Shown piece after piece: positions 10,047 to 40,994 of a DNA stretch of 64,000 nt. This DNA comes from Bdellovibrionales bacterium (GTDB lineage Bacteria; Bdellovibrionota; Bdellovibrionia; Bdellovibrionales; JAUICD01). The position numbers and the translations under genes were made by a program. The stretch covers positions 340,581 through 404,580 of the forward strand of contig OZ241865.1 in assembly GCA_965203275.1 (NCBI GenBank). Direction: 5' to 3'. Position 1 is the first letter of the stretch; each line of letters opens with the position of its first letter. Under the pieces are notes generated by a model, which did no database searches, was not told the DNA's origin, and saw only the letters and a list, made by a program, of their open reading frames with translations.

Positions 10047-10127
10047 GGCATACATATTTTTATTTGTCAAACTACAAAACAATCATGTATAGCCAGAGGC
10101 TTTAGTAATGATAAAGAGAGCTTTTTT

Positions 10128-10850: not shown

Positions 10851-10966
10851 AATGATGTATTTAGACAAAAGAGTCCCTTGTGGTCTCTTTTTTTATTTAA
10901 AGTTTAAAGATTTGATTGTCTTTTTATTTATACCATAATAGTCTTTTAAAAAATAAGGGGGATATT

Positions 10967-11905
10967 ATGCTATTTCAAAGGAAAAAAATTGCTGTGATTG
11001 GCAGTGGATTTGTAGGAGCAACAGCTGCCCATCAATTAGCTTTTAAGGAGCTAGGAGATGTGGTTCTGTTAGACATTCATGAAGGTATGACAAAAGGTAA
11101 AGCTCTTGATTTGTTGGAGTCTTCCCCTATTTCATATTTTGATAGCCACATTACAGGAACAAAAGACTACAAAGATATTTCCAATTCTGATCTCATCATT
11201 ATAACAGCTGGATTACCTCGCAAGCCAGGCATGAGCCGTGATGACTTACTTGCTACTAATGCTAAAATTATGAAGGAAGTTTGCTCAGGCATTAAGCAAC
11301 ATGCACCTGACAGTATTGTCATTGTAGTCTCTAACCCTTTAGATGCTATGGCCTACATTGCTAAAAAAGAGCTAAACTTTCCAAGAAATCGCATTTTAGG
11401 TATGGCAGGTGTTTTAGATAGCGGTAGATTTAAAACCTTCATTGCTCAAGAACTTCATGTTTCTGTTAAAGATGTACATGCTTTTGTTTTAGGAGGACAT
11501 GGGGATACTATGGTCCCTTTACCACGTCTTTGCTCTGTGGGAGGTATTCCTTTATTAGAGCTACTCAGTCAAAATCAGGTGGATGCTTTAGTAGAGAGAA
11601 CACGTAAGGGAGGGGCTGAAATTGTTAGGCTTTTAAAAACAGGTTCGGCTTATTATGCTCCCTCTGCCAGTGCTGTGCAAATGGCTGAAGCTATTTTAAA
11701 AGGACAAAATCGCCTTTTACCTTGTACTGCTTATTTAAAAGGGGAATTTGCTGTCCATGATCTTTTTATTGGAGTGCTTTGTGTTTTAGGTGCAAATGGA
11801 TTAGAAAGAGTCATTGAGTTTCAATTAACACCAGAAGAACAAAAACACTTTGATCATTCTGTTCGTGCTGTCAAAGAGCTTGTCAACAAACTTGAAACCT
11901 TTTAA
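10967..11905 (+). CDS. mdh: malate dehydrogenase (LDH-like family)
   Basis: KIAVIGSGFVGATAAHQLA Rossmann motif, ITAGLPRKPGMSRDDL, VLGGHGDTMVP. GGGGGA SD before the ATG at 10967; the ORF is open from 10916. Confidence 0.95.
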   Translation: MLFQRKKIAVIGSGFVGATAAHQLAFKELGDVVLLDIHEGMTKGKALDLLESSPISYFDSHITGTKDYKDISNSDLIIITAGLPRKPGMSRDDLLATNAKIMKEVCSGIKQHAPDSIVIVVSNPLDAMAYIAKKELNFPRNRILGMAGVLDSGRFKTFIAQELHVSVKDVHAFVLGGHGDTMVPLPRLCSVGGIPLLELLSQNQVDALVERTRKGGAEIVRLLKTGSAYYAPSASAVQMAEAILKGQNRLLPCTAYLKGEFAVHDLFIGVLCVLGANGLERVIEFQLTPEEQKHFDHSVRAVKELVNKLETF

Positions 11906-11972
11906 TATGTGTGCTTTTTAAATATTTCTAATATGCAATAACTTTTAGACAGAAAAATAAAGCACATCTTAA

Positions 11973-13825
<1,853 letters not shown>

Positions 13826-19489: not shown

Positions 19490-19601
19490 TCATTTTGATA
19501 CAAATCACTGATATTTCTTAAAAAATTCTCAAATAATAGTTAAGTCCCTTGAAAAGATGCCGATACAGTACTTAAGGCTATTAAGTAGCTTAGAGAAGTA
19601 T

Positions 19602-20726
19602 ATGTATCTTAGAATAACCATTATCTTATTGTGTTTGTCTTTATTTGGATGCGGTGGGAGCAAGTCATCCACTTCCATAACACCAACACCATCACCAGAC
19701 AAGTCAGGACCCGGAGTAAATCAAAGCCCGAGTCCAGTAGCAAGTCCAAGCCCGACATTGCCAAATTGCAATTCAAAGTTTATTGGCTTGCCTATTCTTA
19801 ATATAAGAAAACCATTAATCAATGAAGCCACTGTTGATGATGGAGAGGCTTTAAGACGAGCTAGTGAAGATGGACATGTAGAAAATGTAAAGGCATTGCT
19901 AGAAAAGGGTACAGATATAAATAGTCAAGACAGCAAATATGGCAAGACGGCCTTAATGTTGGCTAGTCAGTCTAATCATATAGAGATTGTAGGGTTATTG
20001 CTAGCGACTGATGCCAATGTGAACATTCAAGACAACTATGGCACGACGGCTTTAATGTATGCTAGCAATGGTCGTAAACACCATCACCAACACCAGACTG
20101 AGATTGTAAAGCTATTGCTAGCGACCGATGCCAATGTGAACATTCAAGACAACTATGGCATGACGGCTTTAATGTTGGCTAGTCGTGAGGGCTATGGCTA
20201 TATAGAGATTGTAAAGCTATTGCTAGCGACTTGTGCTGATGTCAATCATCAAGACAAATATGGCACGACGGCTTTAATGTATGCTAGCAATGGTCGTACT
20301 GAGATTGTAAAGCTATTGCTAGAGGCCGGAGCGAACGTCAATCATCAAACAAAAAAAGGATGGACGGCTTTAATGCATGCTAGTCGTACTGAGATTGTAA
20401 AGCTATTGCTAGCGGCCGGAGCTGATACCGACTTTCAAGACAGAAGAGGCCGAACAGCTTTAATATGGGCAAGCTTATATGGCCATGTTGAGCTTGTAAG
20501 GCTATTGCTAGCGGCCGGAGCTAACGTCAATATTCGAAATAATGAAGGGAATACGGCTTTAATAGCCGGTTTAAGAAGAGATATTGAGATTGTAAGGTTA
20601 TTGTTAGAGGCCGGTGCTGACGTTAACCTTCAAAACAAAGCAGGGAAAACGGCTTTATATTATGCAAGACAGGATGGTCGTACTGAAGTTGTAAGGTTAT
20701 TGCTAGCGGCCGGAGCTACAGAATAA
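19602..20726 (+). CDS. ankyrin-repeat lipoprotein (about 9 ANK units)
   Basis: The ORF is open from 19557; the Met at 19602 gives MYLRITIILLCLSLFGC (lipobox LFGC). Pro/Ser-rich linker, then repeated G.TALM.AS..G..EIVKLLLA.GA.VN units. Confidence 0.85.
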   Translation: MYLRITIILLCLSLFGCGGSKSSTSITPTPSPDKSGPGVNQSPSPVASPSPTLPNCNSKFIGLPILNIRKPLINEATVDDGEALRRASEDGHVENVKALLEKGTDINSQDSKYGKTALMLASQSNHIEIVGLLLATDANVNIQDNYGTTALMYASNGRKHHHQHQTEIVKLLLATDANVNIQDNYGMTALMLASREGYGYIEIVKLLLATCADVNHQDKYGTTALMYASNGRTEIVKLLLEAGANVNHQTKKGWTALMHASRTEIVKLLLAAGADTDFQDRRGRTALIWASLYGHVELVRLLLAAGANVNIRNNEGNTALIAGLRRDIEIVRLLLEAGADVNLQNKAGKTALYYARQDGRTEVVRLLLAAGATE

Positions 20727-20818
20727 TACCAATTCTATATTTGTCTCAAAGTGAGAATCTTTTTTTTTATCTTTTTTTCACATAAATCATTAAGTCAGAC
20801 TAAAGTCATACCGATATT

Positions 20819-21589
20819 ATGCTTATGGCAGGTTTTATTATTATTTCTCTAGCAATATTTTTTTGTTTTTTGATCTTTGGCAATCGGTCAGATCCCAGGA
20901 AACAATTATTGTATGCTTGTGATAACGGACATACAGATGTTGTAGGGATATTGATAGAAAGTAAAGCTGATATTGACATTAAAGGAGAAGCTGGCCAGAG
21001 GGGTTTAATGATGGCAAGCTATAACGGATATACAGATATTGTATTGTTATTGCTAGAGGCTGGAGTCGATGTCAATATTCAAAGCCAAGATGGCTGGACG
21101 GCTTTATTATTTGCTAGTACAAACGGCCACGAGGAAATTGTAAGGCTTTTATTATTATCAAATGCAAATGCTGATATTCAAACTTATAAAGAAGGCTTTA
21201 CGGCTTTACTAGTAGCAAGTGCTAAAGGTCATATAAAGATTGTAAGGCTTTTATTAGCAGATGGTGCAAATCCAGATATTCAAGACAATGACAATGGAAC
21301 AGCTTTATTGGGAGCTTGTATATTTGGTCATATAGGGATTATAAGGCTTTTATTGGACTTTGGAGCAAACATCGACGTCCAGGGGAAAAAAGGTATGACA
21401 GCTTTAATGTTGGCTAGTTATTTAGGACGTACAGAGATAGTAAGGATGTTGCTAGAAGACAATGCAGACGTAGAAATAAAAACCAGAGATGGGTGGTCGG
21501 CTATAAGCATAGCTCTTTCAAAGAATTACAAAGACATATATGATATGTTGTTTATGGCTATGGTTAGAAAATATAAATTAATAAGTTAG
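20819..21589 (+). CDS. membrane-anchored ankyrin-repeat protein (about 7 ANK units)
   Basis: N-terminal TM segment GFIIISLAIFFCFLIF, then repeats GWTALLFASTNGHEEIVRLLLLSNANADIQ and similar. Confidence 0.85.
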   Translation: MLMAGFIIISLAIFFCFLIFGNRSDPRKQLLYACDNGHTDVVGILIESKADIDIKGEAGQRGLMMASYNGYTDIVLLLLEAGVDVNIQSQDGWTALLFASTNGHEEIVRLLLLSNANADIQTYKEGFTALLVASAKGHIKIVRLLLADGANPDIQDNDNGTALLGACIFGHIGIIRLLLDFGANIDVQGKKGMTALMLASYLGRTEIVRMLLEDNADVEIKTRDGWSAISIALSKNYKDIYDMLFMAMVRKYKLIS

Positions 21590-24876: not shown

Positions 24877-25461
24877 ATGTCGTTTGTAAATTATAATGCA
24901 AAAGAAATTCATTGTAAGATTGTCTACTATGGTCCGTCTTTAGGGGGCAAGACCACCAATGTGCAGTGGATTTTCCAAAAGACCACACAAGATCCTAAAT
25001 CTAAATTAATGAGTTTAAATATAGAAAATGAAAGAACAGTTTTTTTTGATTTCTTACCTTTATCACTTGGTGATATTCGGGGTTTTAAAACACGCTTTCA
25101 TCTTTATTCTGTTCCTGGGCAAATGGTGTATGATGCTAGTCGAAAGCTTATTTTAAAGGGGCTGGATGGTGTTATCTTTGTAGCTGATAGTCAAATAGAG
25201 AGGATGGAAGAAAACTTACAATCTCTTGAAAATCTTAAAACCAATTTAGAACAACAAGGTTATAATATTCATCAAATTCCCTTAATTTTTCAATACAATA
25301 AAAGAGATTTACCTAATATTATGCTTGTCAATGAGTTGCGATCGCAACTGAATAAATACAATGCTCCTGATTTTGAAGCCAGTGCAGTGCAAGGGGTTGG
25401 AGTTTTTGAATCTCTTAAACCTCTTTCTAAAAAAATCATTAATATTTTAAAGGGTGGGTAG
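24877..25461 (+). CDS. mglA: Ras-like GTPase MglA
   Basis: Collinear with my recollection of Myxococcus MglA: MSF.NY...EI.CKIVYYGP.L.GKTTN, FFDFLPLSLG.IRGFKTRFHLY.VPGQ, SRKLILKG.DGV.FVADSQIERMEEN, QYNKRDLPN. Confidence 0.9.
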   Translation: MSFVNYNAKEIHCKIVYYGPSLGGKTTNVQWIFQKTTQDPKSKLMSLNIENERTVFFDFLPLSLGDIRGFKTRFHLYSVPGQMVYDASRKLILKGLDGVIFVADSQIERMEENLQSLENLKTNLEQQGYNIHQIPLIFQYNKRDLPNIMLVNELRSQLNKYNAPDFEASAVQGVGVFESLKPLSKKIINILKGG

Positions 25462-27153: not shown

Positions 27154-28344
27154 TTAGCTTAGATTGTTTAGTTTTTTCTGTATTTCTCGTATTTTGTTCT
27201 CTGTGGACTCTGTGATTTTTGCAATGGTTGAAATATCCATGTTATTTTTAAGCATTTTTAAGATAATATCTTGCCTACCTTCTTGCCTACCTTCTTGCCT
27301 ACCTTCTTGCCTACCTTCTTGCCTACCTTTCTCTCGGCCAATCTGAATGCCTTTCTCTTGGCCAATCTGAATGCCTTCTTCTCGGCCAATCTGAATGCCT
27401 TTTTTCATAGTTCCTTCTATGGTAAAATCAAATGCTTCCATAATATTTTCTCCTCCTAATTGTTGGGTCACTTCTTTTGAAGCTGATTGAACAACTTCTT
27501 TACTTAACTGATTATTGTACTGATAAAAATAAGTCATCGCTTTAGTGATGAGTTCTATTATATACTTTTTATCGGTACTTTGCGACACTTTTTTCACAAA
27601 TGAAAAAAATTTTATGAAAAAATCATGCTGTTCCTTTGTACTTTTTCTACTATCTAAAGACCAAATACCCTGAAATAAATGCAAAATAGGGCTGATCATT
27701 GAACCTTTTGCCTTCGCTTCTATATCATAAACCGATAGATCAAATGGTACATAAGAAAAATTCATAAGGTAAGGAGCAATAAGACTGCGAGAATGATCAG
27801 GAAAATAACCTTGAGATTCTAAGTAATCATGGAAAGAAATAGGCACTGTCCATTTTTTCATCCCGTGATAAAAAACAATAGGAATTACTGGATAACCATA
27901 TTTTTCATAGACTGTAGCCTGATATTTTAACAATTGTTTTAAGACATTATGGTCTGGCCAGCTTTTGTGTTCTAAGAGAAAGATAAATTTGACTGTTTTT
28001 TGAGAGTTTTTAAGGGTCAATGAAATAAGAAGATCTATTTGCATTTCTATACCTGCTATTAAAACATTCTTTTCTATTTTGAGCGAATCAAGGTTAAAAA
28101 GATTTAGAAATGCCTGAGAAAAAACAAGTTTTAGAAAAGCTAATATGTTCTCTACATTATCAAAAAATCTCTTGAAAGACAAGTCATGGACATGAGCTTG
28201 AGAAATAGCTTGTTGCCTTTCTTTTTGAGCTTGATTCTTAAGATGATTTTGTTTCACTTGATTCATTTTGCATAGAATAAACATATCTTGATGGAATGTC
28301 AAATACGTTTGTTTCATTGTTTCACTAAAAGTGGGCTGTTTCAC
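27154..28344 (-). CDS. Rpn/YhgA-like PD-(D/E)XK nuclease ('putative transposase') with C-terminal tandem peptide repeats
   Basis: HDLSFKRFF...IDLLISL....FIFLLEHKSWPDHNVLKQLLKYQATVYEKYGYPVIPIVFYHG fits the Rpn/Transposase_31 core. C-terminus has GIQIGREE/GIQIGQEK/GIQIGREK then (EGRQ)x5. The first 9-26 codons overlap an intergenic repeat, so the true start may be the Met at 28317 or 28266. Confidence 0.75.
   Translation of the reverse strand: MKQPTFSETMKQTYLTFHQDMFILCKMNQVKQNHLKNQAQKERQQAISQAHVHDLSFKRFFDNVENILAFLKLVFSQAFLNLFNLDSLKIEKNVLIAGIEMQIDLLISLTLKNSQKTVKFIFLLEHKSWPDHNVLKQLLKYQATVYEKYGYPVIPIVFYHGMKKWTVPISFHDYLESQGYFPDHSRSLIAPYLMNFSYVPFDLSVYDIEAKAKGSMISPILHLFQGIWSLDSRKSTKEQHDFFIKFFSFVKKVSQSTDKKYIIELITKAMTYFYQYNNQLSKEVVQSASKEVTQQLGGENIMEAFDFTIEGTMKKGIQIGREEGIQIGQEKGIQIGREKGRQEGRQEGRQEGRQEGRQDIILKMLKNNMDISTIAKITESTENKIREIQKKLNNLS
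27270..27401. repeat. in-frame coding tandem repeats: 12 nt x5 (27270-27329), then 24 nt x3 (27330-27401)
   Basis: CTTGCCTACCTT x5 encodes (EGRQ)5 on the minus strand. TCTCTCGGCCAATCTGAATGCCTT-like x3 encodes the GIQIGREx units. Confidence 0.95.
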
Positions 28345-29130
28345 TAAAAGTGGTCTAGCCTCTGGCTACTTTTGGGCAATGACCGCAAAGGCTTTCGCCT
28401 TTGACAAAATGGTCATTGCCTCATTTGATTTGCACTAAAAGTAAACTAGCCTCTGGCTACTTTTGGACATTGCTCTGACAGCTATCGCTGTCCAAAAAGA
28501 GCAATGTCTCAAAAGTCCGTTTACTTTTAGTAGGGAAAGATCCTCTTGTCTCTTAACATGATGTTAAGGAAAAAGTTCCTTCATTGTAACCCGCTTGCTC
28601 TTAAGACAATAAAAGAAAAATTTCCTTAACATGGTGTAAAGGAATAAAAAGATCCTTTTCTACTCAAAATAAATGGATTTTCTAGGTAGTTAGCCTTTGA
28701 TCGACGGCGACAGCCGTCGGGCTAACTGCCAGAAAACATGCCAGAGGCATGATTTATTTTGAGTGAAATGTTAAGGAAAAAGTCGTCCTCTTTCTACCGC
28801 CCACACACGGGCGAGGTTGGCTCACTAAAAGTGGTCTAGCCTCTGGCTACTTTTGGGCAATGACCGCAAAGGCTTTCGCCTTTGACAAAATGGTCATTGC
28901 CTCAAAAGCCTGACCACTTTTAGTAATGAGGATCCTCTCGTCTCTTAACCACATGTTAAGGAAAAATTTCCTTAACATGGTGTCAGAAGCAAGGAGATCC
29001 GCTCTACTCAAAATGAGCAGATTTTTGAGGCATTGCTCTTTTGGGACAGCGTGAGCTGTCAGAGCAATGCCCAAAAACACACCAGAGGTGTGGCTCATTT
29101 TGAGTGAAATGTTAAGGAAAAAGTCGTCCT
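28321..29130. repeat. intergenic palindromic-repeat mosaic (block G), abutting the distal end of the CRISPR array
   Basis: Same module family as the other blocks. Contains the orphan CRISPR repeat at 28790-28813. Confidence 0.9.
28790..28813 (-). CRISPR. orphan truncated CRISPR repeat (24 of 28 nt)
   Basis: CTTTCTACCGCCCACACACGGGCG followed by AGGTTGG instead of TAAC. The 29 nt to its left (GAGTGAAATGTTAAGGAAAAAGTCGTCCT, 28761-28789) are duplicated at 29102-29130 beside the first full repeat. Confidence 0.8.
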
Positions 29131-29881
29131 CTTTCTACCGCCCACACACGGGCGTAACATAATGAGGCTCTAACTAAAACCCTTAAAGTTCTTTCTACCG
29201 CCCACACACGGGCGTAACACGTTCCTAGTGAGACAATTAATGACGTTAAACTTTCTACCGCCCACACACGGGCGTAACAATTACCTCTCAGTGTAATATC
29301 CTCGTCCATTCTTTCTACCGCCCACACACGGGCGTAACAATTACCTCTCAGTGTAATATCCTCGTCCATTCTTTCTACCGCCCACACACGGGCGTAACAA
29401 TTACCTCTCAGTGTAATATCCTCGTCCATTCTTTCTACCGCCCACACACGGGCGTAACTTAAAGACGATGAGTTTAGGATTCAAGTGCTTGCTTTCTACC
29501 GCCCACACACGGGCGTAACTTAAAGACGATGAGTTTAGGATTCAAGTGCTTGCTTTCTACCGCCCACACACGGGCGTAACTTAAAGACGATGAGTTTAGG
29601 ATTCAAGTGCTTGCTTTCTACCGCCCACACACGGGCGTAACGAGGTACTCTAGTCATTGCTTCTTCTTTTACACTTTCTACCGCCCACACACGGGCGTAA
29701 CTCACACTCACTGCCAAAGTTGGCACACTTCTTCTTTCTACCGCCCACACACGGGCGTAACAAATTCTAAGAGAGTTTTGGAAAAAAGAAAAACTTTCTA
29801 CCGCCCACACACGGGCGTAACAAAAATCACATTGTAAGTGAAGATAGCCGGTTCTTTCTACCGCCCACACACGGGCGTAAC
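29131..29881 (-). CRISPR. CRISPR array: 13 identical 28-nt repeats and 12 spacers of 32-33 nt (8 unique)
   Basis: The plus-strand repeat CTTTCTACCGCCCACACACGGGCGTAAC starts at 29131, 29191, 29251, 29311, 29371, 29431, 29492, 29553, 29614, 29674, 29734, 29794 and 29854. In cas orientation it reads GTTACGCCCGTGTGTGGGCGGTAGAAAG: stem CGCCC/GGGCG, loop GTGTGT, 8-nt 3' tail. Confidence 0.97.
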
Positions 29882-29923
29882 ACTTCTATAAAAACATTTA
29901 ACAATAACAAATAGTTAAACATT
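29882..29923 (-). promoter_or_regulatory. putative CRISPR leader (AT-rich, 42 nt between the cas2 stop and the first repeat)
   Basis: Position and AT-richness only. The leader may extend into the 3' end of cas2. Confidence 0.45.
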
Positions 29924-30208
29924 TCAATTTATTTCTATTAAATGATTAAAAATACCTTCATCAGTTTGACGGCTCTTTAAATCACCAAAAACATAAGAGC
30001 GAAACCCTAAGTGATGAGTCCCATCAGACCATATAAACACCACTCTAAAATCTTCATTATTTTTTCTTAACTCTTTTAAAATATCTTCTCTAATACCATT
30101 TTTAGGCCAAACCCATACATCCATTGCAATTCTCCAGCAATATCTGCCAATGATCCCACGGGCTTTATGACTTTTTTCTTTTAAAGCATCATTAATAATA
30201 ACAATCAT
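29924..30208 (-). CDS. cas2: CRISPR-associated endoribonuclease Cas2 (I-E-like)
   Basis: 94 aa. MIVIINDALKEKSHKARGIIGRYCWRIAMDVWVW... parallels my recollection of E. coli Cas2 ([33 protein letters not shown]). ATGA overlap with the cas1 stop. Confidence 0.85.
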   Translation of the reverse strand: MIVIINDALKEKSHKARGIIGRYCWRIAMDVWVWPKNGIREDILKELRKNNEDFRVVFIWSDGTHHLGFRSYVFGDLKSRQTDEGIFNHLIEIN

Positions 30209-31077
30209 TTGCTTTCTTGCTTAAAAACTTCATTCAATGTTTTGACTAAATAATCTAAAACATCTATTCCTAAAACTAATTTCATAAACTGATTCTTTAT
30301 TTCTGTTAAACTCCACTCTTTTTTAACAGCAAGAAAAGACAACTCTAAAGCAATCACAGGTTTAACCACATCAGCGAGATCGTAAGACAAACCTCCTCCT
30401 TTTGTCCTGCCATGCAGTATGCCAATATTAGGATCATAACCTAAATGTAAAATTGTTAAATCTGCAAGTGAATAAGACAAAAAGTTTAAAAAAGTCAGAG
30501 GATCTTTTTTACCTCTATAAGGCTTTCCTCTTTTCACAAAAGGCACTCCATAATCAATAGCTAATAACTTATAAGCCTCTCTAGCCCATGCTCCTTCCTT
30601 TGCTAAAAGGGTATTAATATTGTCCCCTTCTTGAGCAGATGGAAATTCAAGTAATTTCACAGAAGAATATTTTTTTATAAAAGTAGCTCTCTTTTGAAAA
30701 AGAATCTTTGCAACATTTATTCTTCTTTTCTCATCAAATATGACATCATGTTGCCTGATACGAGGAGAAGGAGATCTATGCTGTGTAGAGCATAAATAAA
30801 GAGGAGCAGCATTCCCACCCATCACACCAATCAAGCAACCTCTCGATGAGATAATTCTCATAGATTCTGATGTGATACTTGTCCCTGGCCCTAAAAACAA
30901 CCCCCCTATTCCACACACAGGAATAGAATACTCCTCTTTTAAACCCTTCTTGAAAATTCTTATATCGTTATCCTTTCTCTTGATCTTACTATATTCTATA
31001 TAATAAAAAGGAATTCTTCTCGATAGAGGAATCAAGGGTTGTACTTCATCAATACTTATATACTTTCTTTTATTCAT
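30205..31077 (-). CDS. cas1: CRISPR-associated integrase Cas1 (I-E-like)
   Basis: 290 aa. LGPGTSITSESMRIISSRGCLIGVMG, EGAWAREAYKLLAIDYGVPF, PNIGILHGRTKGGGLSYDLADVVKP align with the Cas1e blocks [61 protein letters not shown]. Confidence 0.9.
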   Translation of the reverse strand: MNKRKYISIDEVQPLIPLSRRIPFYYIEYSKIKRKDNDIRIFKKGLKEEYSIPVCGIGGLFLGPGTSITSESMRIISSRGCLIGVMGGNAAPLYLCSTQHRSPSPRIRQHDVIFDEKRRINVAKILFQKRATFIKKYSSVKLLEFPSAQEGDNINTLLAKEGAWAREAYKLLAIDYGVPFVKRGKPYRGKKDPLTFLNFLSYSLADLTILHLGYDPNIGILHGRTKGGGLSYDLADVVKPVIALELSFLAVKKEWSLTEIKNQFMKLVLGIDVLDYLVKTLNEVFKQESK

Positions 31078-31094
31078 TTTTTAATTAACATATT

Positions 31095-33611
31095 TTATTT
31101 CTTTAAAATTTTTAATAAATCTTCTTTAACCAATCCAAACTTTTTATGATACACCCGATGCTCTGTTTTATTGTTATCTTGATCTTTGAGATGTTCTGAT
31201 AAGCATTGATTAATTTCTTCATCAACATGAGAACACAATAAAGGTCTCTCTAACTTAAAGCCATAAATCTTAATGTACTTATTAAATTCAAAAACTTCTT
31301 CACTATTATTGATTTGATTAGCCTTTTGACATTTACTTTTTGTTTCTAAACATACCCTCATAGCTTCTGTTATTTTTGTAATAAACCAGTCTCTACTTTC
31401 ACTGAGCAAACAGACTCCTTGCAATTGCTTGACTGGTTGGCCATCATCATCTACAACACAGGCACTTAAAAGCCGAGATTCCCCTCTAAATAAACTATTA
31501 AACACTTGTGCTTTTTTGTTTTTCCCTGATAAAGACCTTTTTGGAATATACTTATTCAAATCTTTAATAGCTTCTGTTTGTTGTCGCTCTAAAATTTCAC
31601 AAGATACTTTGATATTTTCATCAGTCCAAAAATTATCATAAGCTTTCATAAGATCTCTTATGGTGATAAAATTTCCATCCTGCTGTTGAATAAAATCTAA
31701 AAGATAACCCTGCCATTTTTTATGAATTTCTTGAAAATCAGCTTTTCTTTTATTAAAAAACTTTTCTGTCTCATCATTGTAGATAAAACATATCTGTGCA
31801 TCTTTTTTATTCTCAAATCGATTGATTCTTCCAGCAGTTTGACAGTCCGCATGAGGTTGCGATAATTCTACAAGAGCTTTTTGAAAGCTTAAGTTATAAG
31901 AAGATTGCAACATCTTTGATGTGATCACTGATTTGTCACTGATGAGTATCTTTTTTGATCCATGCTCTTGCAAAATAGATTCTAATAATTCTTTTTTATC
32001 CTCATCAGTGAAATAAGAATGAATAAGTTTTATTTGATCTGTCTGTGCTTTTAAAAGTTTAGCAAAAATTTCTTGGCTATTTTCTACTCTTAAAAAAGAA
32101 TACAAACAATCAGGTTTAAATGTATTGATTTTTTCTATTTTCATGCTTTGAGCAGAGATTTTAAATTTATGGTTCTCTCTGGCTGAAAGCTGATCTCTTT
32201 TAAAAACACAGCTATCTTCTACAGAGATGTATTTTAATAAAGAAGGGTCTGGTGTGCCACTCAACATCAACGTTTTAACTTCTGAGTGAAGCCAACGGCT
32301 CCTTATTGTGAGTATTTCTTTTAAAGCAGGGATCATTTTAGGGTGTTCTTTAAACTCATGGAATTCATCTAAAACCAAATGAGAGCGAAGCATCTTAATA
32401 AATTCAGAAGACTGGCTCCTCTTATAATAAGGGCTTAAAAACCTATCAAAAACCATAATATTAATATCTGAAGTTAAAAGCTCGCTACTTTTTTCTGCCT
32501 CCGGATTACAACGTTTTCTTTCTCCATTAAAAACACCTTCTATTTTGATATTATGATATTTACCATAAATTCTTTTACAATCTTCCTTAATGGAATAAAA
32601 CAAACCTGTCACCTGATGTTGTCTTGGCAAAGCTATGATCAATGGATGTTTATTTTGACAGTGATGCCACCAATAAAGAGCAATGCTGGTCTTACCTCCA
32701 GCAGGATCAACTCCACAAACAGCAAGTTTTTTATTAGACTTAGACATTTTATAAGCTAAATCATTTTGTTCTTTGCTCTTTGAGTTTTTATTAAGATTTT
32801 CCATAATATGAAATGGTAGCTTTTTTTCTGCAAAAATTGATTTTCTATCTTTCCAGTTTTGTAAAAACTCTTGAAGTTCAGTGATATCCCATAAAGACAC
32901 AGCTCTATCAGATTCAAGAAGTAAGTTAAGACAAATTTGTTTAAAGGCATTATCATAAACAGTTTCTGATTCGTGTTTGAAAAACTTAGGACATTGTATT
33001 TCTTCAATATCATCATTGGGTTCTTCTAAATCAGGTTTATTGCTATTCTGATCATACAAAGGAAAAGAATCAAAAAGCTCTTTAACAAACTTATATATAT
33101 TCTGTTTTATATTGTCTTCTTCTATTTTCTCAAATATGACTTTAGAATTTTCAAATCTTAATGTATCTTCTTTATCATTACAATTAGCAGGATGATGCCA
33201 ATAAACAGAATGACGAACAATATCTTTAATTTTTCCATTATTAAATCTTACAAAGTTAGCAATGTAGGCCCATGAAATTTCATTATGAAATGGTCCTTTA
33301 AAACTTTTTGGCCTAAAAGATTCAGCATCCATGGGTATCTCTTTGAAATCATCTTTGACGTTTGATTTGCTGTGAATATATTTTTGAAAATCTTTTGAGA
33401 CCTTCCCTATATCATGGAGCAGGCCAGCAGAGATCAAACATTTATTGAGTTGTCTTTCTTTATCAGGTTTGAAGTTTAATGATTTGAGCAGTAAGTGACC
33501 ATAAAGGGCTACAGCCATAGAATGCTCTTTTAAAGGTTGCCCTTTTGTGTTAGCTAATAAAGTGCTTTCATTATTTTTTTGCTTTTGATTCATTGTCTTT
33601 TTCCCAATCAT
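31095..33611 (-). CDS. cas3: Cas3 HD nuclease / SF2 helicase
   Basis: N-terminal HD motifs (HSMAVAL, LLHDIGKVSKDF, HNEISW, VYWHHP). Helicase motif I GVDPAGGKTSIAL, motif II LVLDEFHEF, motif VI QTAGRINR. The start may be the internal Met at 33593. Overlaps the upstream gene by about 40 nt. Confidence 0.9.
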   Translation of the reverse strand: MIGKKTMNQKQKNNESTLLANTKGQPLKEHSMAVALYGHLLLKSLNFKPDKERQLNKCLISAGLLHDIGKVSKDFQKYIHSKSNVKDDFKEIPMDAESFRPKSFKGPFHNEISWAYIANFVRFNNGKIKDIVRHSVYWHHPANCNDKEDTLRFENSKVIFEKIEEDNIKQNIYKFVKELFDSFPLYDQNSNKPDLEEPNDDIEEIQCPKFFKHESETVYDNAFKQICLNLLLESDRAVSLWDITELQEFLQNWKDRKSIFAEKKLPFHIMENLNKNSKSKEQNDLAYKMSKSNKKLAVCGVDPAGGKTSIALYWWHHCQNKHPLIIALPRQHQVTGLFYSIKEDCKRIYGKYHNIKIEGVFNGERKRCNPEAEKSSELLTSDINIMVFDRFLSPYYKRSQSSEFIKMLRSHLVLDEFHEFKEHPKMIPALKEILTIRSRWLHSEVKTLMLSGTPDPSLLKYISVEDSCVFKRDQLSARENHKFKISAQSMKIEKINTFKPDCLYSFLRVENSQEIFAKLLKAQTDQIKLIHSYFTDEDKKELLESILQEHGSKKILISDKSVITSKMLQSSYNLSFQKALVELSQPHADCQTAGRINRFENKKDAQICFIYNDETEKFFNKRKADFQEIHKKWQGYLLDFIQQQDGNFITIRDLMKAYDNFWTDENIKVSCEILERQQTEAIKDLNKYIPKRSLSGKNKKAQVFNSLFRGESRLLSACVVDDDGQPVKQLQGVCLLSESRDWFITKITEAMRVCLETKSKCQKANQINNSEEVFEFNKYIKIYGFKLERPLLCSHVDEEINQCLSEHLKDQDNNKTEHRVYHKKFGLVKEDLLKILKK

Positions 33612-34731
33612 ATTTTTTAAATTCTTTTATTCCTGCTTTTCTTAATTGATATATCTCTACAAAAATTGGATCTTTTGTCTCATAACCACGTCCCATTTCC
33701 TCAAGGCCATCATAATCCACAAAAACCACACCTCCTTCGCCCCATCTAGCTAGGTTTGGCCCTTGTTTGAACTTTTGGATCATATCTTCCCAAGCCGAGG
33801 AATTTTGGTTTTCTTCAAAAGCTTCTTGTGATAAATAAATATCAAAATCCACACAAGCAATATAAGCCGGTGTCCCCCTCACAACAGAATAATATTGTTT
33901 ATCTATCCATTGTTTGGTATTATTCAAATCAGTAAAAACACTAAATTTGCCATAACGAGATTTTTTTATTTGATCTAAAAAATCAGTATCTAAGTCACAT
34001 AAATGGCAAATTTTTTCTATCAGCTTTAAAACTTGTGTACTTATAGATTTTTCATCTTGTATTCTTTTTAAAGCTGTATTGATACCATCTTTTAATTTTG
34101 ATTGAGGGATTTTTTCATCTATAATTTGACTTAGTTTGAGTGCATCTTGTTTTAACTTTTCATATTCTTCTTTATTTTTCTTATATGTAATAACAGTTTC
34201 TTGAAAGAGAGAATAAATATTTGAAAGAGATAAAGACAAGGAAGCAGATTGTAATATCTTCACTAAAGGCTTTCCTAAAAGTTTTATTGTGGGATCCGCA
34301 TGTTCAAAAGGATGGTTATGGAGATTCACTTTAGGGTGATCAGAAAATTCAGATTTTTTATAATGGGTGTCTTTCCTTTCAAAAAAAGTCGTGATATGAG
34401 GTTCTGATATTTTTTTAATAGCTACTGTTTGTACTATGGCATCTAAGGTAGAATTAAGCTTTTGAATAGACGGCTTTTGACTATCTTCTATTTTCTTTAT
34501 CTTTTGCGTCTCCCCCATAAGGTAAGAAAATAATCCCTTGAGAGAACTCTCCCTGACAAGAGATAAGACTTTTTGAGAGCTATGTTTGGGGTGAGGAATT
34601 AATTTAATATCCTTTTCTCCTGTCTCTTGTGGTGGATAAAGAAATAATTTGCCAATTTTTATTCTCTCCCATGCTTTGTCTTGCCTGATATAAATACCGC
34701 CTGACCGGACTTTTAATTTAATGTATGACAT
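33571..34731 (-). CDS. Cas5-like Cascade subunit with a large helical insertion (candidate large-subunit substitute)
   Basis: GAGGA SD 6 nt before the ATG at 34731; the track ORF starts at a TTG at 34737. N-terminus YIKLKVRSGGIYIRQ....SSLKGLFSYLMGE resembles the Cas5e beta1 plus helix (YLILRLAGPMQAWGQ...TRSGLLGLLGACLG). The middle 200 aa or so are Lys/Glu-rich and helical. Family assignment is tentative. Confidence 0.5.
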   Translation of the reverse strand: MSYIKLKVRSGGIYIRQDKAWERIKIGKLFLYPPQETGEKDIKLIPHPKHSSQKVLSLVRESSLKGLFSYLMGETQKIKKIEDSQKPSIQKLNSTLDAIVQTVAIKKISEPHITTFFERKDTHYKKSEFSDHPKVNLHNHPFEHADPTIKLLGKPLVKILQSASLSLSLSNIYSLFQETVITYKKNKEEYEKLKQDALKLSQIIDEKIPQSKLKDGINTALKRIQDEKSISTQVLKLIEKICHLCDLDTDFLDQIKKSRYGKFSVFTDLNNTKQWIDKQYYSVVRGTPAYIACVDFDIYLSQEAFEENQNSSAWEDMIQKFKQGPNLARWGEGGVVFVDYDGLEEMGRGYETKDPIFVEIYQLRKAGIKEFKKYDWEKDNESKAKK

Positions 34732-34733
34732 AA

Positions 34734-35666
34734 TCAATCCTCAGTTACTTCTTTAAATTCTTTGAAAAAATGATGAAATTCTATCTTACTTAATTCTTCT
34801 TTCAGTTTAGACTCTTCAGCATCTATTGTATCTTCACCATCAAAAAAAGAAACTTTAAGTGATCCCTTTTGATAAGCTAATCTGGATCCTGCTTTTAACC
34901 CATGAATACTACGTATTCTTAGAAAAACAACTTTCACAAGGTGCCTTATTTGTTTTTGATTCAATAAAATCCCCTCTCTTGGAACTTTATAAATAGCATC
35001 TTTGTCAATGTATTTTTTGATTTCAAGAGCAGAGTCGACACCATGTTTTTCAAAATACTCTTTAAGAAGCTCTAAACATTTATCTTTATCTTTTTTGTTG
35101 ATCATAGAAAAATCGTTATCTACCCCATAGAGAGATAAAAATTGAAGCTCTTTAAGATTTATCCCACCTAAAAGCTTTTGTTTCCTATAGGGCAGGTTAT
35201 CTTTTGAAAACATGGACGTATCACTTTTATCTTCACCCTTTTTATTTTTCTCTTTTCCTTCTTTTGGCTTAGAACTACTCCCTTGATCAAAAACAATATC
35301 TAAATGATCAGTAGTTACCGCATCTGCTATATGTAAAGGAGAACATTTTTTAAATCCATCATCGGGTGATAAATAACCTCTTAAAAGCCCTACTTCTGAG
35401 GCTACCATTTCAATAAATTTATCAGCAAAAATTTTATTTGAAGGTTGTCTGGGTTGAAGGTCTTTAAATATCTCATGCCTCAAACAACGCGAAGATGTGT
35501 AATCTTTTCTTCTCTTTTGACTTTGATCTACATTTTGAATTTCAGTGAAAGTCTTTGCACACAAATGATTCTCATGTCCATCTCTTTTACCAACTTTGTT
35601 GTAATTATAGACACCCCAAACATCTAAAAGACCTTCAAAGGTAATAGTTTTAATTGATTGACTCAT
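34734..35666 (-). CDS. cas7: Cas7 (Cascade backbone, RAMP)
   Basis: AAGGAGG SD. DYTSSRCLRHEIFKDL matches the Cas7 motif (.S..slR...r). KCSPLHIADAV resembles the second conserved strand. 310 aa, a typical Cas7 size. Confidence 0.7.
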   Translation of the reverse strand: MSQSIKTITFEGLLDVWGVYNYNKVGKRDGHENHLCAKTFTEIQNVDQSQKRRKDYTSSRCLRHEIFKDLQPRQPSNKIFADKFIEMVASEVGLLRGYLSPDDGFKKCSPLHIADAVTTDHLDIVFDQGSSSKPKEGKEKNKKGEDKSDTSMFSKDNLPYRKQKLLGGINLKELQFLSLYGVDNDFSMINKKDKDKCLELLKEYFEKHGVDSALEIKKYIDKDAIYKVPREGILLNQKQIRHLVKVVFLRIRSIHGLKAGSRLAYQKGSLKVSFFDGEDTIDAEESKLKEELSKIEFHHFFKEFKEVTED

Positions 35667-35677
35667 AATAATCCTCC

Positions 35678-36235
35678 TTATTTCATTAAAATTAATCCAT
35701 AGCCGTAGGATTTTCTAGATCCTACGCCCTTACTTAAAGCTTGATTGAATTTATGATGATCTAAAATATGAAATTTTCCCTCAATGCTAAAAATATTGTG
35801 AATAGTAAAATAAATATCCTTTTTATCTTCTCTCCGAGGTCCAAGAAACTGACAGGATACCTGATCTCCCTTGAGACCTGTCATAAAGCAAAACTTCTCT
35901 AAGGCTTTATCTTGGTTTATTTGAGGATAGATGTTTTTTTGTCCTCTTTTATTTTCCGGAATAATATTTTTTTTGTGTCTATTGCAAAACGAAACATGAG
36001 TTTCTAATGCCACTGTCTTATCATCCTCATTGATTAGACTCATTTTTTGAGTGCTGTGATGTAATGGTTTAGCAGGTGGAAGTGTGGAAAGAACATACAG
36101 CAAATCACCTTGAGACAGTGACGGACAGATATTTTGAGGAGAATTAAATAACTCTCTAATCAATGAATGAACAGAAGAATAACCAGCTTCAAATAAAGAA
36201 AAACAATAAATATTTACTTGATTTTTCAATGTCAA
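35678..36235 (-). CDS. cas6: Cas6 endoribonuclease (Cas6e/CasE-like)
   Basis: 185 aa. TTG start 5 nt after GAGG. C-terminus IFSIEGKFHILDHHKFNQALSKGVGSRKSYGYGLILMK parallels E. coli CasE VCFEGVLTINDAPALIDLVQQGIGPAKSMGCGLLSLAPL (glycine-rich loop). Confidence 0.75.
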   Translation of the reverse strand: MTLKNQVNIYCFSLFEAGYSSVHSLIRELFNSPQNICPSLSQGDLLYVLSTLPPAKPLHHSTQKMSLINEDDKTVALETHVSFCNRHKKNIIPENKRGQKNIYPQINQDKALEKFCFMTGLKGDQVSCQFLGPRREDKKDIYFTIHNIFSIEGKFHILDHHKFNQALSKGVGSRKSYGYGLILMK

Positions 36236-36264
36236 AATGACCTCACTTTAAATTGAGAAAAAAA

Positions 36265-36309
36265 CTGAACAGAAATATTCTGAGCAGAAATATTCTGAAC
36301 AGAAAGATT
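36265..36309. promoter_or_regulatory. three tandem 15-bp iterons about 30 nt upstream of cas6
   Basis: CTGAACAGAAATATT / CTGAGCAGAAATATT / CTGAACAGAAAGATT at 36265, 36280 and 36295. Confidence 0.4.
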
Positions 36310-36741
36310 TAAGTTTCTTCTTTCAAATTTTTCTTGGAACTCTTTTCCTTGTTTTTTGTCAAAGTTTGATGAGGGGATGGATTGTCAAACTACATTAAAA
36401 TATTTTCCTAACCACATTAACCTCTCCCCCTTTTCATAATCTATCGTCATAGTCAGACCAAGACTTTAGTCTTTATGAAAGGAAATTTTATTTATATGAA
36501 AAGTGTTTCATATTGAGGCAAAAAAGCAGGGCAGGACTCTTTAAACCCTTAAGTGCTAGATTCTAAATGCTCGATTTACTGCAATGAACAAAGAGAATAC
36601 AAAGAGCGTCATTATAATAATACTGAAAATCTACATGAACATTTGAAGGTTGTTAAGCTCAGGCAAACTCAGGAAAAAACAGATATTGTCATCCCTAACC
36701 TAAACTGAGAGGCCCCAAAAAAGCTTTGCTGGTATTTTTAT

Positions 36742-38141
36742 GAGCTTGTCCCTGATATCGGTGAAAATAGACGGCTCATAAATTAGTTTTTAATTGTTTT
36801 TTCTTTTTGTCAATAATAATTTTTTTTAAACTTTGTTCTAATTGTTCTAAATCTTTAAATCCTTTAATGCTTTTGAAATGTTTTTCTGCTTCCAATAGAC
36901 TCACAGCAGACCATCTTAAAACTTGATCTGAAGAAGAACTCCAATTCTTTACCCTCCGAACTTTTTCCCTCACAACTGAAAAAACAGACTCAATAGGATT
37001 TGTCGATGATAATGACCTCCTTAAAAGTAATGAAACTCCAAGCTTGATCGTTGTCAGTGTCTCCATCTCTGCCTCTTTTAAAGATGTGAATGCTGAATGA
37101 TTGACCCGCTTTAACCAGCTTAATAAAGACTCATGCTCTAACTTCGATGACAACTCATCTGGCATACCATGTAACTTCTTCCAACGACTCTTAAACTCTA
37201 TGTGACGACTTGGAGGTAAGCAACTCAGAATATTTCTCTCTTTATGCTGAATACAACGCTGAACTACTGAACGACCTGAAAATACTCTATCTATTCCCTT
37301 CCTTAATGCTTTGCTACCATCAATCACAAAAAGATAACCCTTCTCTTTATCAAGACCACGACCTATAAGTCCCTCCAGAAGATCACGGCAAACTTCCCAA
37401 CTCTCTGTATTGCCTTCTTTAAGACCTAATATAACCTTCTTACCTTGATCTGTGATTCCTAAGGCCACTATAACCAGCGTAGAACCAATACCCACTCCAT
37501 CTATCATTATCGCTGGAAACCTGTACTTACTTAAATCACGATTGTTAATCGACTCAAGGGCTTGTTTAGATGACTTATTAAAAACTCTACTCACACTACT
37601 CCTAGAAAGTTTAAGCCCTCCTGAAATATCATCTAAAAGATGATTGTAATTCCGTGATGAAACTCCACTCATGGCATGTTTTAAAACACGATCACTGAGT
37701 ATGTCATAGTGTTGAAGGGCTGAATAGATCTTAAGCCTCACTTCACGACCTGACTGCTTAACACGAGGCTTCCTAACCTGCAACTTTTGACCACCTGCAA
37801 GTATGCTACCTTTATCACTACCAGCTCTATGATATGGTGTATCTCTATGACGACCATAACGCTCACCGCAAAGCTCTAATAGCTCTGCTTCAAAAAAACC
37901 ATAGACCGAACAAAGAATAGATGACTTGATCTCATCCTCTACAATCTGACGAATTTCTGACAAAGTATTGGCTGAAACTTGAAATGAATGACTATTTTTG
38001 GTACACTTCATAATGGCTCCTTTCTTTTTATTTTTAAAAGTTAATTGTTAATAAAATTTGGTTGGCTGAAATATGCCAACCAGGAGCCTTCTATCTTAAC
38101 ATCTTCTCTAAGAAAAATTCACCGAATTATAGGACATGCTC
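36742..38141 (-). mobile_element. IS256-family insertion sequence (1400 bp) with imperfect terminal IRs and an 8-bp target-site duplication
   Basis: Left end GAGCTTGTCCCTGATATCGGTGAAAAT versus the reverse complement of the right end GAGCATGTCCTATAATTCGGTGAATTT (about 19 of 27 matches). Direct repeat ATTTTTAT at 36734-36741 and 38142-38149. Confidence 0.85.
36776..38011 (-). CDS. IS256/Mutator-family transposase
   Basis: 411 aa. AIMIDGVGIG...VIVALGI, LFVIDGSKALRKG, VQRCIQHKERNIL, NPIESVFS are typical DDE Mutator-family blocks. Confidence 0.9.
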   Translation of the reverse strand: MKCTKNSHSFQVSANTLSEIRQIVEDEIKSSILCSVYGFFEAELLELCGERYGRHRDTPYHRAGSDKGSILAGGQKLQVRKPRVKQSGREVRLKIYSALQHYDILSDRVLKHAMSGVSSRNYNHLLDDISGGLKLSRSSVSRVFNKSSKQALESINNRDLSKYRFPAIMIDGVGIGSTLVIVALGITDQGKKVILGLKEGNTESWEVCRDLLEGLIGRGLDKEKGYLFVIDGSKALRKGIDRVFSGRSVVQRCIQHKERNILSCLPPSRHIEFKSRWKKLHGMPDELSSKLEHESLLSWLKRVNHSAFTSLKEAEMETLTTIKLGVSLLLRRSLSSTNPIESVFSVVREKVRRVKNWSSSSDQVLRWSAVSLLEAEKHFKSIKGFKDLEQLEQSLKKIIIDKKKKQLKTNL

Positions 38142-39713: not shown

Positions 39714-40994
39714 TTATTCTGTAGCTCCGGCCTCTTGCAATAACCTTGCAATTTCAGTACGGTTATGTCCACTAGATTGACGTCTAGTAGTCCATAATAA
39801 AGCCGTACGGCCATTATTGTCTTGATGATTGACGTTAGCTCCGGCCGCTATCAATAACTTTACAATCTCTACATGGCCTCTATCACTAAAAACATTTCTT
39901 ATCCAGTCTATAGATTCGTTATAATGATCGATTGAAGACACCACTATTGGATACTTTCCTTTCTGTAGGAGTCCATTAACAGCATGCATTAAAGGTGTCT
40001 CCCCATCTGCATTTGCTCGATTGACGTTAGCTCCGGCCGCTATCAATAGCTTTACAATCTCTGTATGGCCCCACTTACTAGCCAGCAATAAAGCTGTCTC
40101 GTCCTTCTTTGAGAAATAACGCACAAATCGACTTCTAATGTTTGGATCGGCTCCAGCCGCTAGCAATAACTTTACAACCTCTGTATAGCCATCCTTACTA
40201 GCCCACATTAAAGCCGTATAGCCACCATAGCCTTGATAATTGACGTTAGCTCCGGCCGCTATCAATAACTTTACAGATTCAATGGTTTCAAGCATGAAGG
40301 GAGTCTTGCCACTAGCATACATTAAAAGTGTATTGTGGGTTTTGTCCACCGGCATATTAACATTCATACAAGTACTTTTTAAAAATAGCTTTAAAATTTC
40401 TGTATTTTTGACAAGGGACTTTCTAAACAAAGAATACCCTTTATAAGAAACCTTGTTATTATGTATAAAACCACCCTCAGAGTCTCCAGCCTCGTCCTCT
40501 TTAGTATACGAAAGACTACCAGGGTCTGCTCCGGCCGCTAGCAAATTCTTTATACCCTCTATATCACCATTAATAACAGCCTGTTTTAAATTTGCACGAC
40601 CATGACGAGGCCTGCAAGTGTATGTTGTTGGAGTTGGTCTTAAAACTACCTGTGGAGCTGGAGTTGGTCCTGGAATCAGAGTTGCCGTTGGTTCTGGAAT
40701 CCGATCTGGAGTTGGTCCTGGAATTGGAGCTGTAGATGGTCCCGGAGTTGGAGATGGTCCGGGAGTCGGAGCTGGAGTTGCCGTTGGTCCTGGAGTCGAA
40801 GTTGTAGATGGTCCTGGAACCGGAACTGGAATCGAAGCTGGCTTTTGTTCTATTTGAGAACTGGACGTCTTACTGTCAAAACGGCTTTTCGCACAGTTGT
40901 TAAAACTGAATACCAAACAAGACAAAATAAGCAATGCTAACGATAAATAAGCAAGCCTTTTTTTAGATTTTAGATTTTTAAACATTTTAAACAT
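39714..40994 (-). CDS. ankyrin-repeat exported protein/lipoprotein; paralogue of 19602-20726
   Basis: Signal anchor ..LALLILSCLVFSFNNC. Pro/Thr-rich linker (PVPVPGPSTTSTPGPTATPAPTPGPSPTPGPS), then ANK units with HTEIVKLLIAAGANVN. The last codons and about 40 nt of 3' flank are near-identical to the other gene. Confidence 0.85.
   Translation of the reverse strand: MFKMFKNLKSKKRLAYLSLALLILSCLVFSFNNCAKSRFDSKTSSSQIEQKPASIPVPVPGPSTTSTPGPTATPAPTPGPSPTPGPSTAPIPGPTPDRIPEPTATLIPGPTPAPQVVLRPTPTTYTCRPRHGRANLKQAVINGDIEGIKNLLAAGADPGSLSYTKEDEAGDSEGGFIHNNKVSYKGYSLFRKSLVKNTEILKLFLKSTCMNVNMPVDKTHNTLLMYASGKTPFMLETIESVKLLIAAGANVNYQGYGGYTALMWASKDGYTEVVKLLLAAGADPNIRSRFVRYFSKKDETALLLASKWGHTEIVKLLIAAGANVNRANADGETPLMHAVNGLLQKGKYPIVVSSIDHYNESIDWIRNVFSDRGHVEIVKLLIAAGANVNHQDNNGRTALLWTTRRQSSGHNRTEIARLLQEAGATE

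Follow-up and report, generated by a model that had tools for sequence, protein, structure and literature searches.

How does a type I CRISPR-Cas locus of only six genes, with neither Cas8 nor Cas11 among their products, make up an interference complex, and beside which of the known subtypes does it belong? The question is raised by a locus in a 64,000-nucleotide (nt) stretch of DNA from a Bdellovibrionales bacterium (contig OZ241865.1, positions 340,581 to 404,580 of the forward strand), which we call the window and whose own numbering is used throughout. A first-pass annotation, made from the letters alone, had taken the locus for a type I system with a three-protein Cascade (Cas6, Cas7 and an enlarged Cas5), built on an "I-E chassis" and convergent with I-F2. 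The three-protein Cascade is still the best reading. The I-E chassis and the convergence are not supported: Cas7 is homologous to Cas7fv, Cas3 is a Cas3fv-type protein, the Cas5 model is Cas5fv-like and Cas1 lies nearer to I-F. Since Cas7, Cas3 and the Cas5 model all match their I-F2 counterparts, this Cascade is homologous to that of I-F2 and not convergent with it. We consider it likely that the locus is a self-contained type I system, with an interference module homologous to, but deeply diverged from, the minimal one of I-F2 (I-Fv).

The list of open reading frames (ORFs) of the window has six closely packed genes, all in one orientation, at 36235-29924 of the minus strand, each where the first-pass annotation had put it. 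In the direction of transcription, they are cas6 (36235-35678; 185 residues, with a TTG start), cas7 (35666-34734; 310 residues), the enlarged cas5 (34731-33571; 386 residues, or 388 if the TTG at 34737 is taken as the start), cas3 (33611-31095; 838 residues), cas1 (31077-30205; 290 residues) and cas2 (30208-29924; 94 residues). The order is thus cas6-cas7-cas5-cas3-cas1-cas2, followed by the CRISPR array; that this order is non-canonical, and that Cas2 is unfused, had been correctly noticed. The intergenic distances from cas6 to cas2 are +11, -4, -41, +17 and -4 nt, the start of cas3 overlapping the 3′ end of the 386-residue gene by 41 nt. Therefore, no further gene fits within the locus, and there is neither an ORF nor space in it for cas8, cas11 or cas4, as had been claimed; the related loci likewise leave no such space. 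An HD and superfamily-2 helicase Cas3 accompanied by Cas5, Cas7, Cas6, an array and Cas1-Cas2, all present here, makes this a type I locus, in agreement with the earlier description. A promoter scan gave a result no better than shuffled sequences.

The product of cas7 is a Cas7fv-like backbone subunit. It matches the NCBIfam Cas7fv model NF040577 at 6e-30, with 104.6 bits against an equivalog cutoff of 200, and the PADLOC Cas7fv model at 5e-22, and its relatives in the PDB are solely I-Fv/I-F2 Cas7 chains (5o6u_C and 9g44_F, at 8e-10). Identity with the Cas7fv of Legionella is 32% over 223 residues. The precomputed Pfam assignment is PF28157, "Cas7fv-like", the existence of which indicates that the family has already been noticed. 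No protein of the locus matched the Cas7e or Cas5e models of NCBIfam and PADLOC.

The HD nuclease and superfamily-2 helicase encoded by cas3 points in the same direction, although it had at first been likened to that of type I-E. Among the PADLOC models, Cas3fv is matched at 3e-55 (profile positions 100-922 of 951), the next being Cas3b at 4e-30, with Cas3e at 3e-13; the one PDB match, at 7e-29, is 9g44_A, the I-F2 Cas3 of Shewanella putrefaciens. The protein scores above the cutoffs of Pfam Cas3_HD, DEAD and Cas3-like_C_2 and of TIGR01596 cas3_HD (55.3 bits, cutoff 43.45). By BLASTP, it shares 27% identity over 649 residues with the Cas2-3 fusion of Legionella, and since this alignment begins only at residue 109 of the fusion, the N-terminal Cas2 domain is absent. 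The motifs LLHDIGK, YWHH, GGKT, DEFH and QTAGRINR are all present, and the alignment with canonical Cas2-3 shows conservation of the HD, Walker A, DExH and motif VI signatures. In a Cas3 tree, the window clade and L010, a related 8.6-kb contig, group with the I-F2 Cas2-3 proteins to the exclusion of I-F1 and I-E, with 100% bootstrap support, in keeping with a sister relationship to I-F2.

What, then, is the 386-residue protein? Its family is small, with 35 proteins in an index of 5.8 billion and 38 representatives found by an exhaustive profile search among 1.84 billion proteins, as against more than 2,200 relatives, all with PF20158, for canonical Cas5fv. A first AlphaFold model, made from 31 close homologues, was poor (pLDDT 60.5) and retrieved nothing with Foldseek. 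It was the addition of the distant members from the exhaustive search that made the model informative: AlphaFold2, run on a 38-sequence alignment that includes them, reached a pLDDT of 88.6 and a pTM of 0.71. In the model, a helical domain (approximately residues 125-283) interrupts a beta-rich RAMP core, and the best Foldseek matches of the model in the PDB are 5o6u_F (1.3e-6; TM 0.40/0.44), which a sequence search identifies as Cas5fv, and 9g44_B (4e-5), both with probability 1.0. Cascades containing Cas5e were matched only at E>2. The first-pass description of an enlarged Cas5-like gene agrees with this model, for which Cas5fv chains were the only matches of high probability. From the predicted structure, we conclude that the gene probably encodes a Cas5 of the Cas5fv architecture, a RAMP core with a helical insert, which is predicted to cap the 5′ handle of the CRISPR RNA (crRNA) and to read the protospacer-adjacent motif (PAM). 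The helical insert would be either a homologue of the AH domain of I-F2 Cas5 or an independent insertion at the same site.

Cas6 is a small RAMP endoribonuclease of the Cas6e/type-IV kind and the predicted processor of the crRNA precursor. The earlier view that it resembles type I-E has held. Pfam PF08798 (Cse3/CasE) matches it above cutoff at 8e-8 and PADLOC Cas6e at 1e-8, the TIGR01907 equivalog scoring 19.5 against a cutoff of 45.2; a profile of six sequences of the family retrieves only Cse3/CasE chains from the PDB (4e-6 to 0.02); and hhalign against the Cas6e proteins of E. coli and Streptomyces gives 81-83% probability, over the C-terminal 40-50 residues only. A C-terminal motif, GVG..KS.G.GL, is common to six of the six aligned family members. 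To Cas6f (Csy4), Cas6 of the window has no similarity (hhalign probability 0.1%). In the relatives, the protein starts at a point that aligns with NIYCFS of the window, so that the true start may lie about six codons 3′ of the annotated TTG. The type IV Cas6 model of PADLOC was matched over nearly its full length, and a IV-A3 Cas5 was the third Foldseek match of the 386-residue model (4e-3, probability 0.30); a type IV affinity was rejected in view of the intact HD-Cas3 and the adaptation module.

The adaptation genes take a place of their own. Cas1, the integrase, matches TIGR00287 at 1.5e-28, above cutoff, and the NCBIfam models of Cas1e and Cas1f about equally (6e-33 and 1.5e-32). It had been called I-E-like, but among PDB sequences the I-F Cas1 chains score higher (1e-21) than Cas1e of E. 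coli (3e-11). The free-standing cas2 follows cas1 in every related locus; its product matches PADLOC Cas2 at 3e-5 and, weakly, the I-E/I-F-kind Pfam model PF09707 (1.2e-4; 22.5 bits, cutoff 24.7), and neither a BLASTP comparison with the Cas2 domain of Cas2-3 nor a phmmer search of the PDB gave anything usable. In trees with reference loci of I-E (E. coli K-12, Streptomyces), I-F1 (Photobacterium) and I-F2 (Legionella, Acinetobacter), Cas1 and Cas2 form their own lineages, apart from I-F, where I-F1 and I-F2 stand together (99-100%), and from I-E.

Given these mixed affinities, could the locus be an I-E derivative in which Cas8e and Cas11 were independently lost and a three-protein Cascade arose by convergence with I-F2? 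The Cas6e-kind Cas6, the free-standing Cas2 with its weak PF09707 match, the marginal lead of the Cas1e model for Cas1 in NCBIfam, and adaptation genes that adjoin the array as in I-E would all agree with such an origin. We nevertheless regard it as very improbable, because Cas7 has clear Cas7fv matches and none to Cas7e, Cas3 favors Cas3fv over Cas3e by 3e-55 to 3e-13 and falls with I-F2 at full bootstrap support, the Cas5 model matches Cas5fv and reaches Cas5e chains only beyond an E of 2, and Cas1 is nearer to the I-F Cas1 structures.

The closest known system is I-F2, as represented by Shewanella putrefaciens CN-32 (PDB 5O6U, 5O7H and 9G44) and by plasmid loci of Legionella and Acinetobacter (L011 and L012). 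Shared with it are the three-protein Cascade without Cas8 or Cas11, a backbone protein homologous to Cas7fv, a Cas5 with a helical insert in its predicted structure and a Cas3 of the Cas3fv kind, along with 28-nt repeats that have a GC hairpin and an 8-nt tail of the ..AGAAA type, and 32-nt spacers. Three hallmarks of I-F2 are lacking, and there are further differences. In place of the Cas2-3f2 fusion, cas2 is separate and downstream of cas1; Cas6 is Cas6e/type-IV-like instead of Cas6f; the I-F2 order is cas1-cas2/3-cas7-cas5-cas6 (L011, L012), unlike the order here; Cas5 is missed by the Cas5fv sequence models, Cas7 scores under the Cas7fv cutoff, and Cas1 is a lineage apart. The hosts of I-F2 are Gammaproteobacteria, whereas the named hosts of the window clade are Bdellovibrionales or Bacteriovoracaceae. 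With I-E (cas3-casABCDE-cas1-cas2 in E. coli K-12), the locus has in common the free HD-helicase Cas3, free Cas1 and Cas2 adjoining the array, a nuclease that resembles Cas6e in its C-terminal part and a predicted 8-nt 5′ handle of the crRNA; it differs in that Cas8e and Cas11 are absent from locus and flanks, Cas7, Cas5 and Cas3 are outside the I-E families, cas3 lies downstream of the effector genes, and the repeat is 28 nt long, not 29 nt as in I-E. With I-F1 (csy1-4 with cas2-3), it shares a similar repeat architecture and a Cas1 nearer to I-F than to I-E, but it has no Cas8f (Csy1), Cas2-3 fusion or Cas6f, and in our small tree the I-F1 Cas3 falls outside the window clade.

The clade is, in our assessment, probably a rare sister lineage of canonical I-F2 with unfused Cas2 and Cas3 and a Cas6e-type nuclease. 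Whether it is also uncatalogued, as a sister of I-F2 that joins a Cas5-Cas7 effector without Cas8 or Cas11 and a Cas3fv-type nuclease to the free Cas2, free Cas3 and Cas6e-type nuclease typical of I-E, is a matter on which we are tentative, putting the chance at slightly under even. The suggestion of an undescribed type I variant survives as far as variant status goes; its place, however, is within or next to I-F2 and not in I-E. No description of the architecture, either as an I-F2-like system with unfused Cas2 and Cas3 or with Cas6e, or as a type I-F of Bdellovibrionota, was found in the searchable literature, and the text of the Makarova et al. 2025 classification, taken without the figure concerned, mentions only an I-F1/I-F2 intermediate, itself presented in that figure.

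Several observations weigh against placing the locus beside I-F2 and taking it for a working system. Cas7 stays below the NCBIfam Cas7fv cutoff. The 386-residue protein has no match in Pfam, NCBIfam or PADLOC, none at E<=1 even with the Cas5fv models PF20158 and NCBIfam cas5fv included, and its family profile run against PDB sequences gave spurious Ras matches only. The hhalign comparison of its family with a Cas5fv alignment is not significant (8.9% probability), although the helix-1 motif SSLKGLFSYLMGE is in register with TVLGVLNRLIGDQ of Cas5fv in that same alignment; and the TM-scores of the Foldseek matches are modest. Given the absence of a Cas5fv model match, the hhalign value and these TM-scores, homology of the helical insert is not established. 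The Cas6e similarity is confined to the glycine-rich C-terminal 40-50 residues. All our trees are neighbor-joining trees with 100 bootstraps and few taxa, and serve as supporting evidence only. Finally, no protospacers were found when spacers of the window or a sister assembly were scanned for exact matches in IMG/VR (three scans) and JGI metagenomes (one scan), or when those of seven arrays, joined into a 3436-nt concatenate, were compared by blastn with 50,697 phage genomes.

Is the locus sufficient on its own? It is conceivable that a large or small subunit, or another factor, is encoded elsewhere, since the genome measures about 2.58 Mb, of which 64 kb were inspected, and all type I systems but I-F2 use Cas8. 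The ORFs flanking the locus match no further Cas family and, among defense families, only ankyrin-repeat models. The six-gene module was found in about 35-55 metagenomic loci, the named records being from Bdellovibrionales or Bacteriovoracaceae. Identity within the family, which spans many genomes, is 45-75%. Every fetched related locus that spans the whole region has the full module with an array, namely those of a Bdellovibrionales metagenome-assembled genome (MAG; L002/L004), a Bacteriovoracaceae MAG (L003/L007) and a Pseudobdellovibrio sp. (L008), and two genome-scan matches (L005, L006) have the same kind of array. Because the neighbors at each of these loci are unrelated and no other gene is common to them, the six genes are a conserved unit; no seventh gene travels with them. 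The closest characterized relative works without Cas8 or Cas11 (PMC4937334; PMC12956352). A subunit supplied in trans is, in view of this, improbable, and we favor a self-contained I-F2-like system.

How such a system might work can be proposed by analogy with the solved I-F2 complexes, on which each of the steps below is modeled. The I-F2 Cascade is active with Cas5, Cas6 and Cas7 alone; the AH domain of its Cas5 reads a GG PAM and wedges the duplex, the non-target strand is guided by loops of Cas7, and the docking site of Cas3 is the Cas5-Cas7 interface (PMC4937334; PMC12956352). As Cas7 and Cas3 are homologous to those of I-F2 and Cas5 has a common architecture, this scheme is the most likely one here. 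The array would be transcribed from its cas2-proximal end, and the Cas6e-like nuclease would cleave each repeat at the 3′ base of the GC hairpin to yield crRNAs of 60-61 nt with an 8-nt 5′ handle, GUAGAAAG, and a 20-nt 3′ hairpin on which Cas6 would remain. The Cas5fv-like protein would cap the handle, and about six Cas7fv-like subunits would coat the 32-nt spacer. The helical insert of Cas5 might then assume the roles of Cas8 in PAM reading and duplex wedging, with Cas7 loops holding the displaced strand instead of Cas11, and the free-standing Cas3 could dock directly at the Cas5-Cas7 end and degrade the target. Spacer acquisition would be the work of a separate Cas1-Cas2 integrase, as in I-E, and not of a Cas1-Cas2/3 complex.

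On the minus strand, an AT-rich segment of 42 nt (29882-29923) leads from the cas2 stop to the first repeat, and the array (29131-29881) consists of 13 exact copies of the 28-nt repeat GTTACGCCCGTGTGTGGGCGGTAGAAAG, with 0 expected from 100 shuffles, separated by 12 spacers of 32-33 nt. The leader, the repeat count and the fold of the repeat, a 5-bp GC stem with a 6-nt loop and an 8-nt 3′ tail according to RNAfold, are as first described. The array repeats of the relatives, all 28 nt long, share an invariant 3′ part, GGGCGGTAGAAAG, and show that a sixth stem pair is possible, which covaries as G-C, G-U or A-U. The geometry of stem and tail is I-F-like, and the canonical I-F2 repeat of L012, GTTCACTGCCGTATAGGCAGCTTAGAAA, shares it. 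A scan of JGI metagenomes with the repeat pattern found one further array, and 22 other stretches with a single copy each, which we estimate to be chance matches.

Only eight of the 12 spacers are unique, a feature that had been missed: spacers 5-7 are one 33-mer and spacers 8-10 one 32-mer. The tandem copies of the 33-mer, beginning CAAGCACTTG, are at 29459-29491, 29520-29552 and 29581-29613, and those of the 32-mer, beginning AATGGACGAGG, at 29279-29310, 29339-29370 and 29399-29430. The triplications could come from repeat-mediated slippage or recombination, or they could be an effect of long-read assembly. Also missed was a duplication at the other end of the array, where the trailer with the 3′ part of the last repeat (29068-29154) recurs 341 nt downstream at 28727-28813 with 90% identity. 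It has left an orphan partial repeat, CGCCCGTGTGTGGGCGGTAGAAAG, at 28790-28813 of the minus strand, probably a remnant. A terminator-like hairpin comes after each trailer copy (at 29092-29078 and at 28751-28737 of the minus strand), and between the copies there are several short repeated elements that are also found elsewhere in the sister assembly, L001.

Comparison with this sister assembly bears on whether the locus is alive. Its cas region is 100% identical to that of the window over 6520 nt; it has no insertion sequence (IS) upstream of cas6, four copies of the 33-nt spacer where the window has three, and one extra spacer at the cas2-proximal (leader) end of the array. An extra leader-end spacer between otherwise identical genomes indicates recent, polarized acquisition by Cas1-Cas2, and its position fixes the orientation of the array. 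One may still ask whether the locus is a decaying, inactive remnant, as it is flanked by a Mutator-family IS and a YhgA-like transposase gene, carries triplicated spacers and a duplicated trailer with an orphan repeat, and has a relative, L002, with the cas3 region divided between two called ORFs (357 and 456 residues). We give this hardly any credence: none of the six ORFs is broken and the catalytic motifs are kept, 13 of the 13 repeats are identical, the near-identical sister assembly has one new spacer at the leader end, and the family is conserved in many genomes at the identities given above. On sequence grounds, this is apparently a complete and active CRISPR immune system.

The spacers of the clade also have a bias at their 5′ ends. 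Among 83 unique spacers from seven arrays (L001, L002, L003, L005, L006, L008 and L009), the first base is A in 45 (54%; p=1.4e-5), and the first two are AA in 25 (30%, against a background of 10.5%; p=8.6e-7). The bias may be a signature of acquisition, linked either to a PAM or to a ruler.

To our knowledge, I-F2 is the sole characterized type I system that functions without a large subunit, and it is under development as a compact tool for genome editing and gene regulation. The window clade offers a second lineage of this minimal design, and a far diverged one: Cas3 and Cas7 are about 27-32% identical to their I-F2 counterparts, and for Cas5 sequence comparison detects no similarity. That a Cas5 with a predicted helical insert, a Cas7fv homologue and a Cas3fv-type nuclease are retained here bears on what is essential to a mechanism without Cas8; the Cas2-3 fusion, Cas6f and the gene order have not been retained and thus appear dispensable for it. 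The clade also bears on the relationships among I-E, I-F1 and I-F2. If it branches before canonical I-F2, the minimal Cascade predates the Cas2-3 fusion and the recruitment of Cas6f, and I-F2 is not merely a reduced I-F1. Such a branching order would also justify a new variant or subtype name, and engineering would have at hand another compact Cascade, independently evolved and about 2.65 kb in size. Current curated cas5fv, cas7fv and cas6f models would leave such loci partly unannotated or untyped.

Some related loci depart from the common arrangement. On L009, a single ORF at 10021-13671 encodes 1216 residues with a Cas3fv-like HD-helicase (residues 8-704) and a Cas1 (residues 925-1198); this Cas3-Cas1 fusion, in place of the Cas2-Cas3 fusion of I-F, hints at a physical coupling of interference and adaptation in the clade. 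L010, a more distant relative, has the order cas3, cas7fv-like, cas5-like and Cas6e-like cas6, which is I-F2-like, with no cas1 or cas2 on the contig, and it may be a link between the window clade and canonical I-F2; its cas genes are preceded by a WYL-domain gene and an unassigned ORF of 502 residues on the other strand. In L002, a single copy of the CRISPR repeat (7312-7339) is found well away from the main array, about 1.2 kb upstream of cas6, and is reminiscent of the stand-alone repeat-like regulatory elements of other cas loci. A protein of 1010 residues retrieved in the representative search (P0111) has a Cas5-like part (1-350) fused to a Cas3 helicase without HD, which matches positions 295-830 of the Cas3fv profile; it may have arisen by deletion or be an artefact of the assembly. 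A Pseudomonas paraeruginosa plasmid (L014, 4450-10189) encodes a RAMP protein, Cas6f, a helicase annotated as ATP-dependent, which we take to be of the DinG type, and Cas1f; the locus resembles a type IV-A system with a Cas1 of the I-F type.

The surroundings of the locus in the window are marked by mobile elements and proteins of a eukaryote-typical kind. The Mutator-family IS (about 36741-38141, with a transposase ORF at 36776-38011) lies between nfeD and cas6, some 500 nt upstream of the latter, and since it is absent from the near-identical sister assembly, its insertion is a recent polymorphism. The YhgA-like (Transposase_31) ORF, at 27154-28344, comes directly after the array on its downstream side and has a low-complexity C-terminal repeat, GIQIGREEGIQIGQEKG...GRQEGRQEGRQEGRQ. 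Farther away, Pfam and PADLOC give no significant family match for an ORF of 2222 residues at 53583-60251. Three ankyrin-repeat proteins and an Arf-like small GTPase are encoded around the locus (19557-21589, 24877-25461 and 39714-40994), which suggests a lifestyle associated with a eukaryotic host.

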